Source: a virus
Taxonomy: Duplodnaviria; Heunggongvirae; Uroviricota; Caudoviricetes
Strand: one strand, 5' to 3'
DNA: 7,806 nucleotides
IMG/VR virus record: IMGVR_UViG_3300029459_000073
Location: 1-7,806 of that record
Under the pieces are notes generated by a model. The model worked only from the letters and a program-made list of their open reading frames with translations. It was not told where the DNA came from and ran no database searches. The position numbers and the translations under genes were made by a program. Within the stretch, counting starts at the first letter, position 1. Every line of letters begins with the position of its first letter. Shown here piece after piece: positions 213 to 6,861 of the stretch.

Positions 213-428
213 TTACTCTCCCCGCGCCGCCTTACGACGGTCCTCTCTGATTTTGAAATACAGGTTAGTCAGATATGTCAGCAGCCCAAACAGCAGACTT
301 CCCAGTACGCCTATTGCCGCCCACTGAGACGGGGAAACCCTGTCCAGCAGCTGCAGGAACCAGTAGCCCGTCCCCACCGCTGACGTGGTGTATGACACAC
401 CTGTTGTGATTTTTTCCATCTGGTACAT
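213..428 (-). CDS. S: Class II holin (pinholin), phage 21 S21-like, 71 aa, with dual-start MYQM motif
   Basis: The 71-aa product ([71 protein letters not shown]) closely matches my recollection of the phage 21 / DLP12 EssD pinholin, including the C-terminal [15 protein letters not shown] and the [13 protein letters not shown] segment. Two hydrophobic segments are present. GGAG lies about 9 nt upstream of the ATG at 428. Confidence 0.85.
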
Positions 429-810: not shown

Positions 811-993
811 CTACGGAATGAGAGGCTCTTCGGGTTTTGTTCCGGCTGACTGACTGGCACTGATTTTCTCAGCGGCCCTTTTGTCAATCTGTCTGCGCCA
901 GAAATCGCGCACTGCCCTGTACCCACCCGAAAGAAGATACAGCACACAGACCGCCGTACAGAAGTACAGCATCACCTGATGAATAAATGTCAT
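811..993 (-). CDS. Hypothetical small membrane protein (60 aa, one predicted transmembrane helix)
   Basis: ORF track 811..993 (MTFIHQVMLYFCTAVCVLYLLSGGYRAVRDFWRRQ...). A hydrophobic stretch is followed by a basic segment. ATG at 993..991 with a weak RBS. Overlaps the N-terminal extension of the 504..947 ORF in another frame, so only one of the two readings can be right there. Confidence 0.3.
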   Translation of the reverse strand: MTFIHQVMLYFCTAVCVLYLLSGGYRAVRDFWRRQIDKRAAEKISASQSAGTKPEEPLIP

Positions 994-1089
994 AGTTTCT
1001 TACCGTTATGGTTGACAATGAGAACTGTTTTCATTTAAAAACCGATATACGAAAGCATCTTTTCTTTACATTCTCCATTGGGATTACCT

Positions 1090-1127
1090 CCGCCAGCTTC
1101 CGTTCCTGCCGCTGGCGGCTTTTTTTA
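1090..1127 (+). terminator. Rho-independent terminator, plus-strand orientation, abutting the nanS-p stop codon
   Basis: Stem CCGCCAGC (1090-1097) pairs with GCTGGCGG (1111-1118) around a 13-nt loop, followed by seven T (1120-1126) on the plus strand. On the minus strand the hairpin is followed by AGGTAATCC, which is not U-rich, so it is orientation-specific. Confidence 0.5.
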
Positions 1128-3089
1128 TCATGCCGCGGCATCCGCGTTGTTCACTTCCACCTTCACACTGTCAATCAGCAGCGTATATGTCGCCGCCTTT
1201 GATATGCCTGTCAGTTGCAGTTTGTCCGCCGCCCCTGATGCCGGAGATTTCACCAGTGTGAACGGCGTCCCCCGTTTCTCATCCAGTACCGGCGTCACCT
1301 GAATGCTGTTGTTTCCGGCAAACTCAAAAGCCAGTGTGTGCCATCCGTTATCAAAGACCCCGAACGTATCCAGCTTCGCATTCGGCTTCTTGTGGTACAT
1401 CGCGTTCAGGTTCGTCGCATCCGTCTGCAGGAAGAAGGACATCAGCATGTCGTTGCCTTCCTCTGCCAGCGTCACTCCCTCCGGCAGGGACGACAACTGC
1501 CAGTAAATGCCCAGGGCAAACCGATTCGGCACCAGTGAACCCGGCAACTTAAACCGTACGCTCACACGTCCCCCCTTCTTCAGTAACTCCACTCCCTGTC
1601 CGGCTGCATCATGCTCCAGAAACCAGATGTGGTTTTCCGGTTTATTCAGTTGCAGGGCCTTACCTCCCGTAGCCCCCGCATCACTGACCACCGCTTCAGC
1701 AATGTTTTTGTTAACATTGTCTCCGCTCGCCGGTTTGTGATAATAGCGCCAGCCCTGTGATGCCAGGTCTTCGCCGGACGCCAGCAGACTCATCAGGGTT
1801 CGGTTACTGACCGGGGCTTCCGGCTCTCTCTCCGTACCTTCACCGGAAGGTCCGGTGGGCTTCACCGTATCAGGCTGTTTTCCGGTAATGAATTCAGCGG
1901 TTCTCCCGGCATGCACAAGAATCGCCGTTGCCAGACGGTCGGAAATAATCCCACGACGTGCCCATGATCCAAAATGCGTTTTACGGTCGGCCGTCGTCCA
2001 GGTTTTGGCGTCCGTTCGACCACCGGCTCCGTAATACCCAATATCCGCAACATCCGGATCTTCTGACGGCTCGTTGGTACCCACATTTCGCCCGTTTTCA
2101 TCCGTCATAAACGGCACAAAGAAGATTTTTTTTGCGGATTTCGTCTTGTATGCACCATACACCGCATCGTATTGCGAAGAATAAGTCTGCTTCCAGTAGT
2201 AGGTCGTGTCGCCACAAATCCAGGGAACCGATGACGGAGAGCCCCCGAGACACTGACCTCCGAATTCCGACAGGTCAGAACGATATTTTTCCACCATGGA
2301 ATCAAACAGCCCCGGCTGAGTGGCGTATGCACCCTGTTTCAAATCAAACTCGCCCTGCATCCAGACCACTGCAAGCAGAATATTTTTAGGGTTAGCCTTC
2401 AGTGCGGCCTGAGTACGGGTAAGCAGGTCCTTGTACAGTGGCTTATCTACACCCCAGCGTGCCGAGGTCTCGCTTGCGCCGGTGGATTCGCTGAAGGTAC
2501 CTTCATCGCCCGCCAAAAATGCAGAACCACCACGGCAGCACGGAACCAGAAGAATACCGGCATTCGCCGGAATAAACGGCAACAATTTCTTCGCGATATG
2601 TAATCCCTGCCCCACGCATCCATACTGAGCTGCGCTGGCTTTCGGGTGTGAAAACTTACTCAAATCCTGAACATCATGCAGGCAGTGGTCCGCAGGAATA
2701 ATGTCATTGTAGTTACAGGACGCACCACCCGGCGTGACAGTGCTGCGACGCGCCAGCTGTTTAATACGCGGGTCCGGACGGTCATATGTCTCCGGCAGCG
2801 GAAGCCCTTCACCATACGCCATACCGTTTGACTGCCCGGCCAGGGCAACAACAAAGTAATACTCCGGGTTGCTGGTGGTGCTGATAACTGCGCCTTCTCC
2901 ATCCGACGGCTTCACCACCACAGGTGTGGTGACATCACCTTCCGCCGCAATGGCCTGCATCAGGGTATAAGGCGTGATGGCCACCGGACTGCCAAATGGC
3001 TGCCACCCCTCCTTCAGTTTTTGTGTCAGTCGCTCCGCAAGGTCTGACGGCGACGCCGCCCTGACCACGTCATAGTGTTTAAATGCCAT
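1128..3089 (-). CDS. nanS: Prophage-encoded sialate (9-O-acetyl-N-acetylneuraminic acid) O-acetylesterase, NanS-p type, 653 aa
   Basis: The N-terminus MAFKHYDVVRAASPSDLAERLTQKLKEGWQPFG matches the DUF1737 start I recall for the 933W-type NanS-p (the yjhS-like gene downstream of stxB). The central region carries the SASA/SGNH-type block VVALAGQSNGMAYGEG. Strong RBS GGGAGG 5 nt upstream of the ATG at 3089. Single uninterrupted 653-codon frame. Confidence 0.88.
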   Translation of the reverse strand: MAFKHYDVVRAASPSDLAERLTQKLKEGWQPFGSPVAITPYTLMQAIAAEGDVTTPVVVKPSDGEGAVISTTSNPEYYFVVALAGQSNGMAYGEGLPLPETYDRPDPRIKQLARRSTVTPGGASCNYNDIIPADHCLHDVQDLSKFSHPKASAAQYGCVGQGLHIAKKLLPFIPANAGILLVPCCRGGSAFLAGDEGTFSESTGASETSARWGVDKPLYKDLLTRTQAALKANPKNILLAVVWMQGEFDLKQGAYATQPGLFDSMVEKYRSDLSEFGGQCLGGSPSSVPWICGDTTYYWKQTYSSQYDAVYGAYKTKSAKKIFFVPFMTDENGRNVGTNEPSEDPDVADIGYYGAGGRTDAKTWTTADRKTHFGSWARRGIISDRLATAILVHAGRTAEFITGKQPDTVKPTGPSGEGTEREPEAPVSNRTLMSLLASGEDLASQGWRYYHKPASGDNVNKNIAEAVVSDAGATGGKALQLNKPENHIWFLEHDAAGQGVELLKKGGRVSVRFKLPGSLVPNRFALGIYWQLSSLPEGVTLAEEGNDMLMSFFLQTDATNLNAMYHKKPNAKLDTFGVFDNGWHTLAFEFAGNNSIQVTPVLDEKRGTPFTLVKSPASGAADKLQLTGISKAATYTLLIDSVKVEVNNADAAA

Positions 3090-3283
3090 GAATCCTCCCG
3101 GCCTGGATAATATTGTGAGTAAAATGAGGAGCGGGCTGAAGTCCGGAAGTTACAGGACAATGGCAGAAGATAGACAACAGCCCGCAATACGAAAAAGGCC
3201 GCGCTATTGCGCAGAGTGATTACTGTCGGATATTATTCGCCAGCTGAAATATTACTTCACGTTTTGTTGTTTATTCCTTGCCG

Positions 3284-3311
3284 CCCGCGTCTCCCAGCGC
3301 GGGATTTTTTT
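3284..3311 (+). terminator. Rho-independent terminator, plus-strand orientation
   Basis: Stem CCCGCG (3284-3289) pairs with CGCGGG (3298-3303) around an 8-nt loop, followed by ATTTTTTTG (seven T at 3305-3311). Confidence 0.5.
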
Positions 3312-3315
3312 GTCC

Positions 3316-3341
3316 ATAAGAAAGCCCCTCCGGAGAGGGGC
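3316..3341 (-). terminator. Candidate rho-independent terminator, minus-strand orientation, back-to-back with the 3284-3311 terminator
   Basis: Stem GCCCCTC (3324-3330) pairs with GAGGGGC (3335-3341) around loop CGGA. On the minus strand it is followed by TTTCTTAT (complement of 3323-3316). The U-tract is interrupted, so this is a moderate call. Confidence 0.4.
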
Positions 3342-3660
3342 TGGAGAGTGGCGCTATGTGCCATTGCATGGTGCCGGGTGCCTCCCGGTGAGTTCAGTAT
3401 CAGCACCTGAACCCGCACAGAAAGGATAAGGGTCGGTGACAAAACACCAGTTGCTGATTGCCCCTCCGCACAGGGGGATTCACCATGCCAGTTTCTTTTA
3501 ACAAACTCCCCGCAAACCAGACAACAGTCAACCGCCTGAATTGTGAGGTATTTAAAAATTTCAACGGGTAACTGATACCCTGCTAATCGCCTGATGCTTT
3601 CTTTTTCAGCAACGGGAAAGCAACAACCACCACACCCACCAGCCGCCCATTTACCACAAA

Positions 3661-4093: not shown

Positions 4094-4657
4094 TCAGTTT
4101 GCAACATTTTTCTCTGTAACAAAAGCCATGCGCATGGGGGCATATAACATAAATTCAGATACCCCCAACCATTGATCAATTCGGCGTCTGCACGTAACCA
4201 ACGACCAATCAGGATGATCTGCATTTAACCTTTCGGCCATTTTCAGTTTGCTCATTCCCCGTCCTTCGTACCTTTGCCGGAGAACATTGATTAGCCCGGG
4301 ATATTCCCCAAGCACCTTACTGATAACGCGATCAATAATCAACGCCTCTGTGTCTGTACAATGTGACAACCAGCTCTTCTGCTTTCCTCTTGTCATATCC
4401 CGAAAAAATGCCTCAAGTTCCGGTTTTTCCAGCCCGGATTTCTTCATTCTGCGCAAAACCTCATTAACTGCTGTTTTCGTCAGCTTTTTCGAAACCAGTA
4501 ACCGGTTAAACATATTTCCGGATTTACCCCCACCGATATACGACCACCGCCCCCACATCCGTAATTTCCCCTGGATCCAGACTGCTTCCAGCGTGTTCAG
4601 GCGTAAATGTTCGCCGCTTTTGCCTGTAATTTCCGGATATATCATATTTACGCTCAC
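4094..4657 (-). CDS. Q: Late-gene antitermination protein Q-like (187 aa from GTG at 4657, or 183 aa from ATG at 4645)
   Basis: It occupies the canonical Q position: directly after rusA (6-nt gap) and directly before a tR'-like terminator and the late/lysis region. The protein family was not matched residue by residue from memory, so the call rests mainly on synteny and size. Confidence 0.6.
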   Translation of the reverse strand: MSVNMIYPEITGKSGEHLRLNTLEAVWIQGKLRMWGRWSYIGGGKSGNMFNRLLVSKKLTKTAVNEVLRRMKKSGLEKPELEAFFRDMTRGKQKSWLSHCTDTEALIIDRVISKVLGEYPGLINVLRQRYEGRGMSKLKMAERLNADHPDWSLVTCRRRIDQWLGVSEFMLYAPMRMAFVTEKNVAN

Positions 4658-6434: not shown

Positions 6435-6461
6435 AAAAAACAAAACCCGCCGAAGCGGGTT
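6435..6461 (-). terminator. Strong rho-independent terminator ending the hok transcription unit
   Basis: On the minus strand: 7-bp stem AACCCGC/GCGGGTT with a UUCG tetraloop (loop complement of 6451-6454), followed by TTGTTTTTTCC (complement of 6443-6433). Confidence 0.6.
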
Positions 6462-6500
6462 ACGTGCGGGTGCGTTGAGGATGCCTGACACATCAGAGGT

Positions 6501-6522
6501 GGCGAGGGATTTCTCCCTCGCC
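6501..6522 (-). other. Perfect 9-bp stem-loop 8 nt downstream of the hok stop codon (candidate 3' mRNA structural element)
   Basis: GGCGAGGGA (6501-6509) pairs with TCCCTCGCC (6514-6522) around a 4-nt loop. No U-tract follows on either strand, so it is not called a terminator. Confidence 0.4.
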
Positions 6523-6529
6523 GGGTCTC

Positions 6530-6685
6530 TTACTCCTCAGGTTCGTAAACTGTGAAGACAGCGACCTCCGTCTGGCCGGTTCGGATTCGTACCTCGCAGA
6601 GGTCTTTCCTCGTTACCAGTGCCGTCACTATGACGGTTAAACAGATGACGATCAGGGCGATTAACATCGCCTTTTGCTGCTTCAT
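6530..6685 (-). CDS. hokD: Hok/Gef-family type I toxin (small membrane toxin), 51 aa, HokD/RelF-like
   Basis: MKQQKAMLIALIVICLTVIVTALVTRKDLCEVRIRTGQTEVAVFTVYEPEE has the Hok hallmark (hydrophobic helix, LTRK.LCE.R motif, conserved Cys) and closely matches my recollection of K-12 HokD (RelF). RBS AAGGAG about 9 nt upstream of the ATG at 6685. The track ORF 6530..6742 adds a 19-codon in-frame upstream extension. Confidence 0.85.
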   Translation of the reverse strand: MKQQKAMLIALIVICLTVIVTALVTRKDLCEVRIRTGQTEVAVFTVYEPEE

Positions 6686-6861
6686 AGCCTGCTTCTCCTT
6701 GCCTTTCGGCACGTAAGAGGCTAACCTACATGTGTCTAGCATGAAATTGGCCTCAGATTAATGTTAAGCGTCTTGCAGGACGCGTAATGTTAACTGGGGC
6801 TTTTCTCTATCTGCCTTTTGGTATTCATGCCTGAGACAGATAGCCTCAAGCACCCGCAGCA

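Follow-up and report, generated by a model that had tools for sequence, protein, structure and literature searches.

The 7,806-nucleotide (nt) stretch of DNA analysed here over its whole length (IMG/VR record IMGVR_UViG_3300029459_000073; hereafter the window) represents the late region of a lambdoid prophage without stx genes; read on the minus strand, it has the gene order hok/sok, DUF968, RusA, antiterminator Q, an STnc100-type small RNA (sRNA), a nanS-p-type esterase, DUF1378, DUF826 and a P21-type holin. Between the stop codon of the esterase gene and the start codon of DUF1378 there is a gap of 134 nt, and this gap is occupied by a compact cassette that points the other way, with a promoter-like pair of hexamers, an internal 8-nt motif and a terminator, all read on the plus strand. 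It is this cassette, a candidate sRNA gene, that we describe here. An earlier note on the same DNA had listed a TTGACA -35 hexamer, a weak -10 hexamer at a distance of 16-18 nt and a strong plus-strand terminator, and all three lie where it had placed them; the features and their coordinates are collected in Table 1.

The terminator hairpin has an 8-bp stem, of which seven pairs are G-C, and is followed by a C and then by seven T residues; its 13-nt loop is longer than is typical, and its centroid fold has an energy of about -15 kcal/mol. The scan tool gave an inner alternative stem (1106-1118) that leads into the same T-run. On the minus strand, A7 stands before the hairpin and AGGTAATCCC, without a T-run, after it, so that the hairpin is a one-way terminator for the plus strand. 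The -35 hexamer is separated by 19 nt from the start codon of DUF1378, on opposite strands. Exact TTGACA sites occur three times in the window, against a chance expectation of 5.1 +/- 2.3, so that the site at 1012-1017 is uninformative when taken alone. Counting from the -10 hexamer, the 5' end of a transcript would fall at about 1047-1049, give or take a few bases, and the 3' end would lie in the T-run. Within this predicted RNA, the weak 5' stem-loop is absent from the minimum-energy fold of the window variant. The internal motif is mostly predicted to be unpaired; the complement of its RNA form, UUCUCCAU, is AUGGAGAA, a sequence reminiscent of a Shine-Dalgarno sequence or a start codon.

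Table 1. Coordinates of the cassette and of the genes around it; positions are those of the window.
Feature	Position	Strand	Remarks
-35 hexamer TTGACA	1012-1017	+	6/6 to consensus; read from sequence
-10-like hexamer TAAAAA (best candidate)	1036-1041	+	18-nt spacer; 4/6 to consensus; weak
Alternative -10 hexamer TTAAAA	1035-1040	+	17-nt spacer
Alternative -10 hexamer TTTAAA	1034-1039	+	16-nt spacer
Predicted transcript, ~80 nt	1047..1126	+	from promoter and terminator geometry
Weak 5' stem-loop GAAAG-CAUC-UUUUC	1051..1064	+	closing G-U pair possible on the plus strand only
Conserved motif TTCTCCAT (RNA UUCUCCAU), candidate seed	1071..1078	+	between 5' hairpin and terminator
Terminator hairpin: CCGCCAGC (1090-1097), 13-nt loop, GCTGGCGG (1111-1118)	1090-1118	+	folding: 8-bp stem
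T7 tract, after one C	1120-1126	+	termination signal; probable Hfq-binding 3' tail
nanS-p stop codon (TGA)	1128-1130	-	one base past the T-run
nanS-p-type esterase gene (DUF1737 + SASA + DUF6645)	1128..3089	-	Pfam; convergent with the cassette
DUF1378 gene, first of the lysis cassette	811..993	-	Pfam PF07125, E 1.4e-37
P21-type holin gene	428..213	-	
Antiterminator Q gene	4657..4094	-	

Because none of these features is unusual singly, the case for the cassette rests on comparative evidence. A first collection of 44 distinct variants (alignment A2) was gathered with a pattern that forces GTTGAC, TTCTCCAT, CCGCCAG and CTGGCGG; its invariant columns are therefore partly an artefact, and we rely instead on an unbiased sample of 80 IMG/VR loci that were retrieved through their DUF1378 protein, with the cassette ignored, and of which 78 could be evaluated. 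In this protein-anchored set the -35 hexamer is TTGACA in 76 loci and TTGACT in two, while the hexamer at 18-nt spacing is TAAAAA in 55, TAGAAA in 20 and something else in three. The internal motif reads TTCTCCAT in 77 loci and TTCCTCCAT in the remaining one, and a hairpin with a run of 7-8 T residues is present in 76. The distance from the -35 hexamer to the end of the T-run stays between 114 and 125 nt (115 nt in the window). Conservation of the hexamers in homologous phages had been put forward in the earlier note as a test of the promoter; the -35, an A-rich -10 and the terminator are all kept, which favours an RNA with a promoter of its own, and the internal motif, a feature that the note had not listed, is kept as well.

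The conserved parts stand out against bodies that vary widely. TTCTCCAT is invariant in seven clades despite very different flanking RNA, and the promoter-like hexamers, motif and terminator are retained in clades whose cassette is only ~72-85% identical to that of the window. The extreme cases are the relatives L376 and L410, in which the RNA body is almost entirely different, but which keep TTGACA, TAAAA(C/G), TTC(C)TCCAT and a CGCCAGC...GCTGGCG hairpin with T7-8; each of the two has its own, different 5' hairpin at the equivalent of 1051-1064. In W4-type relatives (e.g. L032 and L378) this 5' hairpin is a perfect CGAAAG/CUUUCG. The outer seven pairs of the terminator stem are invariant in the anchored set, and the eighth is C-G in 69 loci, U-A in three, U-G in two and A-A in two. 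As the minus-strand counterparts of the U-G pair here and of the G-U pair in the 5' hairpin are C-A mismatches, both suggest that the structures are specific to the plus strand. Variation clusters at the predicted start (1041-1050) and in the loops. Judged by these comparisons, the layout of the cassette is conserved more strongly than its sequence.

The 126-nt cassette was found in 305 of 50,697 phage records, at identities to the window from 71% to more than 99%. Nearly all of these are Shiga toxin (Stx) phages of the Stx1 or Stx2 type, including VT2-Sakai, VT1-Sakai, P13374 and phiON-2011 (O104:H4), phi191 and the Shigella phage Ss-VASD. It was also found in 967 of 5,426 complete E. coli genomes, where it occupies 2,150 places in total, with up to seven copies per genome, and these copies carry no annotated feature apart from the end of the esterase gene. 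Sakai and EDL933 (Sp5/933W), O104:H4 strains and ATCC 25922 are among the carriers. A scan for the cassette pattern with one genome per species, and hence a single E. coli genome, returned only chance matches in unrelated genomes of high G+C content.

All relatives examined have a diverged allele of the esterase as the gene ending at the T-run. Compared with that of the Sakai prophage Sp5 (L001 3352-5289), the esterase of the window has 65% protein identity and 51% identity at fourfold-degenerate sites. The idea that the cassette adjoins several unrelated genes was rejected when translation showed that all six other right-hand neighbours are diverged esterase alleles, with different DUF6645 tails. 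To judge from these alignments, mosaic blocks meet at a recombination junction marked by the T-run and the stop codon, with the cassette travelling on the lysis side.

The same slot is used by known sRNAs. PasA and PasC were defined in the enteropathogenic E. coli (EPEC) strain E2348/69 by RNA interaction by ligation and sequencing (RIL-seq) and by Northern blots, and are Hfq-dependent (PMC8550237 Table S6). PasA is an 85-nt RNA running from 743499 to 743415 of NC_011601, with a minor form of 236 nt that ends at 743264, and PasC is a 79-nt RNA running from 1290909 to 1290832; each is flanked by a sialate esterase gene and by downstream prophage genes and is encoded on the strand opposite to theirs ('> < >') (PMC8550237). 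Two Hfq crosslinking peaks in the enterohaemorrhagic E. coli (EHEC) strain Sakai, EcOnc51 (in Sp12) and EcOnc52 (in Sp4), correspond to homologues of PasA/PasC (PMC4104026 Table S2). The order of esterase, convergent cassette and lysis genes is common to the window, E2348/69 and Sakai. The cassette shares with the Pas RNAs its slot, its orientation, a stem of the GCCAGC/GCUGGC type (CCGCCAGC/GCUGGCGG) followed by U7, and a predicted length of ~80 nt that depends on the predicted start. The distance from TTGACA to the end of the T-run is 100-120 nt in PasA, PasC and EcOnc52, compared with 115 nt in the window. Pas-type promoters consist of TTGACA, an 18-nt spacer and an nAnAAA hexamer (CAGAAA or GAAAAA), and the reported 5' end of PasA lies no more than 1 nt from the start expected from its CAGAAA hexamer.

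PasC, from prophage PP5 of E2348/69 (Pearl Mizrahi et al. 2021, PMC8550237), is similar in its arrangement. Its 3' end and the esterase stop are 2 nt apart, while the T-run of the window ends 1 nt from the stop codon; it is 79 nt long and has a CAGAAA hexamer, compared with ~80 predicted nt and TAAAAA in the window, and both have TTGACA and an 18-nt spacer. At the junction, PasC reads ...GCTGGC-T7-ATTATGCTGCC and the window ...GCTGGCGGC-T7-ATCATGCCGCG, so that GCTGGC..T7-AT[C/T]ATGC is common to the two. The internal motifs differ (UUCUCCAU in the window, CUACCCGUUUUA in PasC), as do the adjoining lysis cassettes, which in the window is DUF1378-DUF826-P21 holin. PasC has been validated by Northern blot and shown to be Hfq-dependent, whereas the RNA of the window is a predicted one.

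PasA, or EcOnc51 (prophage PP2 of E2348/69; Sp12 of Sakai), lies in the same slot between the esterase and holin genes and in the same orientation, and has the TTGACA hexamer and a GCCAGC...GCUGGC terminator with a U tract; it is Hfq-dependent and has many RIL-seq partners, among them the 3' end of the esterase mRNA. Unlike the single unit of the window, however, PasA is separated from the esterase stop by ~150 nt, which hold a second, EcOnc52-like unit. Its proposed seed, GCCAGCACCU, overlaps the 5' arm of the terminator, where the window has CCGCCAGCUUCC and shares only GCCAGC. Neither PasA nor PasC contains the UUCUCCAU motif. We also observed that in PP2 (L002, NC_011601 740800-745500; 2468-2735 on the minus strand) PasA and the EcOnc52-like unit form tandem convergent units, the terminator of the latter abutting the esterase stop. 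The minor 236-nt form of PasA looks like read-through of the first terminator, since its 3' end at 743264 coincides with the second one. EcOnc52 itself (Tree et al. 2014, PMC4104026 Table S2) is a 78-nt peak of Hfq UV crosslinking opposite the esterase, with a predicted Rho-independent terminator that abuts the esterase stop and a TTGACA ~100 nt upstream of the end of the T-run; it is shorter than the cassette of the window, its body (CUCUACAAACAUAUAAGGCCUUUUA) has no similarity to it outside the terminator stem, and no Northern blot has been reported for it.

Despite these parallels in layout, membership of the Pas family was rejected, as a covariance model, nhmmer and BLAST all gave non-significant results. 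The covariance model (R1), built from 14 distinct variants of PasA, PasC and EcOnc52, scored the cassette at 8.2 bits (E 1.5, 1059-1123, plus strand) with only the terminator stem aligned; this was its second-best match in the window, the top one being equally non-significant (12 bits, E 0.26) and located in another plus-strand unit at ~3244-3311, described below. Searches with nhmmer of the cassette against Pas sequences, in both directions, gave nothing better than E 0.5, and that in the terminator only, and the 32 phage records found by BLAST with PasC had zero overlap with the 305 cassette records. Nor did Rfam 15, which includes AsxR (RF02703), AgvB (RF02702) and STnc100 (RF02076), give any match over 1012-1127 at E <= 1. 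On the basis of these searches we regard the cassette as a positional and architectural counterpart of PasA, PasC and EcOnc52, and not as a Pas homologue. The terminator and the junction with the esterase stop may be homologous to those of the Pas genes, and the body of the cassette has either been replaced or has diverged beyond recognition.

Two other kinds of phage RNA invite comparison. AsxR and AgvB are Hfq-binding sRNAs of 51-60 nt whose genes lie in the moron region of lambdoid and Stx prophages, downstream of PR', and are convergent with the late operon. They are located upstream of the esterase gene, however, between stx or Q and nanS-p, whereas the cassette of the window is downstream of nanS-p; they sponge the core sRNAs FnrS and GcvB, and there is no sign of such a role for the RNA of the window. 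The OOP RNA of phage lambda, 77 nt long, has its own promoter and an intrinsic terminator, is antisense to a phage operon and pairs with the operon mRNA in cis. It differs in that it lies at the 3' end of cII and acts only in cis, through RNase III, and its sequence is not known to be related to that of the cassette.

Taking these observations together, we suggest that positions 1012-1126 of the plus strand are probably, if far from certainly, a self-contained sRNA gene, carried as a 'moron' in the late region of a lambdoid prophage. The predicted RNA appears to have the layout of an Hfq-dependent base-pairing sRNA, with a variable 5' end, the pyrimidine-rich UUCUCCAU and a Rho-independent terminator with a long U tail. 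A sigma-70-type promoter (TTGACA, 18 nt, TAAAAA) would start transcription near 1047-1049, and the hairpin with U7 (1090-1126) would end an RNA of ~80 nt at the nanS-p stop codon, against the direction of the late operon. We speculate that the lysogen produces the RNA from this promoter at a time when the late operon is silent, that the RNA is stabilised by Hfq, and that UUCUCCAU pairs with mRNAs of the host or the prophage, at ribosome-binding or start regions that resemble AUGGAGAA. The complementarity of UUCUCCAU to AUGGAGAA makes occlusion of such a region in trans the likeliest mode of action; since body and seed both differ from those of the Pas RNAs, the targets probably differ as well. 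Positions -134 to -54 of the late mRNA, counted from the start of DUF1378, are moreover perfectly complementary to the predicted RNA, and cis effects after induction are therefore possible, either on processing or through interference between converging polymerases. In any case, the terminator would keep plus-strand transcription out of nanS-p, and a role as an insulator could coexist with the sRNA.

A number of observations weigh against an sRNA gene. All three -10 candidates lack the T at position 6 of the hexamer, and because of this missing final T a consensus promoter scan of the window made no call at 1012-1041. The -35 hexamer is part of an invariant block that reaches the DUF1378 start codon, and its conservation could instead serve the 5' leader of DUF1378. 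Between the window and Sakai Sp5 the cassette is 85% identical, compared with 89% for DUF1378 at the nucleotide level and 83% at third positions, so much of the similarity of the cassettes may, on these figures, simply reflect recent common ancestry. Covariation in the terminator, assessed by pair counting in the 44 variants, was not above shuffled controls; the RNAalifold consensus of 25 variants likewise contained the terminator only, with zero compensatory pairs. The fold of the whole RNA of the window variant is unremarkable (z = -1.3 to -1.7). No significant targets were found in the window: duplexes predicted with the 5' two-thirds of the RNA against 12 translation-start regions, STnc100 and the plus-strand RNA at 3240-3311 were no better than those of shuffled queries. 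Outside the cassette, the window has a single exact ATGGAGAA, located at 2895-2902 on the minus strand within the nanS-p coding sequence and compatible with chance.

The searches for expression add to this list. A literature search found no expression of the sequence type of the window, though the EHEC sRNAs of Gruber and Sperandio 2015, which were not compared, may include it. The supplements examined for RNase E crosslinking, ligation and sequencing of hybrids (CLASH) contained no match, and there is no Hfq crosslinking peak (EcOnc entry) at the homologous site of Sakai Sp5 (PMC4104026 Table S2), which by the offset of VT2-Sakai corresponds to 1,270,627-1,270,755 of the Sakai minus strand. 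The missing Sp5 peak is weak evidence, because only antisense sites passed the peak filter when they lay within 100 bp of a gene, and because Sp5 and Sp15 probably carry near-identical copies, so that reads could map to both.

An alternative is that the terminator does nothing more than shield nanS-p from antisense transcription coming from the lysis-gene side, with the TTGACA and the A-rich stretch not being a promoter at all and being kept as part of the DUF1378 leader or by ancestry. Judged by consensus, no feature other than the terminator is strong, one TTGACA would be expected by chance, the weak -10 went uncalled in the scan, the -35 belongs to the invariant block by the DUF1378 start, the cassette diverges about as much as DUF1378 does at synonymous sites, and the search for expression came up empty. 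We nonetheless regard a terminator that acts only as an insulator as rather unlikely. It would leave unexplained why TTCTCCAT is retained in L376 and L410, and why these body-replaced relatives have 5' hairpins of their own, and it gives no reason for the constant distance from the -35 to the T-run. In EPEC, cassettes in the analogous slot and with the same promoter layout yield abundant, discrete sRNAs, and the promoter and terminator scan of the window revealed no obvious source of plus-strand transcription upstream of the cassette that would need to be blocked. The earlier note had offered a short convergent RNA and an insulating terminator side by side; the conserved layout and the precedent in the same slot favour the RNA, while the weak -10, the closeness of the -35 to DUF1378 and the null result for covariation count in the other direction. 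If it is a terminator only, the finding is a routine one.

It is also conceivable, though we consider it improbable, that the conserved parts belong to the late mRNA on the minus strand, with the hairpin acting as a stabiliser or processing site and ATGGAGAA, together with an upstream GGAGG, starting a short leader open reading frame (ORF) through which ribosomes would be loaded upstream of DUF1378 and the lysis genes. The GGAGG is 8 nt upstream of ATG GAG AAT (1091 down to 1070), which is textbook spacing, ATGGAG is invariant in all seven clades, and the hairpin would form equally well in the late mRNA. In other clades, however, the GGAGG is GGTGG or GTGAG, and the mini-ORF (within 1031-1091) has 15 codons in the window, 4 in Sakai, 5-6 in L376 and L410 and 25-28 in others, so that its stop lacks a conserved position; the two closest variants differ three times within it, each time non-synonymously. 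The U-G pairs of the hairpin become C-A mismatches on the minus strand, and the conserved T7 tract, which lies 3' of the hairpin on the plus strand, would be without function. We thus read the conservation of ATGGAG as belonging to the plus-strand motif UUCUCCAU. A small protein can be dismissed as very improbable, as the earlier note had already held for the plus strand: although the ORF list contains a 64-amino-acid ATG ORF at 1008-1202 (+) and one of 36 amino acids at 1031-1141 (-), the former crosses the terminator and goes on, antisense, within nanS-p, Sakai-type relatives have ATT in place of its ATG, the reading frame differs between relatives through indels that include one-base changes in the length of the A-run, and coding was rejected on both strands on the grounds of this start loss, the mini-ORF length of 4-28 amino acids and the non-synonymous changes.

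Several further features of the window were observed. The P21-type holin gene (213-428, minus strand) has two in-frame starts, Met1 and Met4 (ATG TAC CAG ATG GAA AAA...), which is the dual-start arrangement of holin and antiholin. Downstream of Q and upstream of nanS-p, a full-length match to STnc100 (RF02076; 143 bits, E 1.5e-32) covers 3312-3517 on the minus strand, in the position of the PasD/EcOnc13-type sRNAs of EPEC and EHEC prophages. Convergent with it is a second plus-strand terminator at 3284-3303 (unit ~3244-3311), which consists of CCCGCGTCTCCCAGCGCGGG, A and T7 and is preceded by CACGTTTTGTTGTTTATTCCTTGCC. This unit has no Rfam match, and it is nearly identical to an EPEC sRNA candidate from RIL-seq, E2348C_1409.E2348C_1408.IGR, which is listed as a homologue of EcOnc08/21/42 (PMC8550237 Table S6). 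A match to the sok antitoxin RNA (RF01794; 120.7 bits) lies at 6680-6855 on the minus strand, with an ORF at 6530-6742 (minus strand) in the position of hok; together they would be a type I toxin-antitoxin locus of the early or nin region of the prophage. Finally, an isrK-like match at 6440-6521 on the minus strand scores 27.8 bits, compared with a gathering score of 50. A terminator-like site (6461..6444) marks its end, and the match may represent either a diverged prophage sRNA of the IsrK type or mere chance.

Returning to the cassette as an sRNA gene, we think it possible, while still somewhat short of an even chance, that it represents a distinct, unnamed family of Hfq-dependent sRNAs, present in most Stx phages (e.g. 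VT2-Sakai/Sp5 and P13374) and in ~18% of complete E. coli genomes, and filling the slot in which a minority carry PasA or PasC, with the UUCUCCAU seed directing a different regulon in the lysogen. Such a family would explain why so few Pas-carrying phage genomes are found by BLAST, as the slot would be held by a cassette of the same design and unrelated sequence. Prophage sRNAs such as AsxR, AgvB, StxS and PasA-D link the carriage of phages to the physiology and virulence of their EHEC and EPEC hosts. Should the RNA be expressed, an unannotated regulator would be present, in one to seven copies, in the Stx2 phages of greatest medical importance and in nearly a fifth of sequenced E. coli, placed directly between the gene for a mucus-sugar esterase and the genes for lysis. 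The junction of esterase and lysis genes would then be a conserved slot for exchangeable sRNA cassettes, which share the promoter layout and the terminator core and differ in their seeds, a view that would be useful both for annotation and for understanding how prophage sRNAs diversify.

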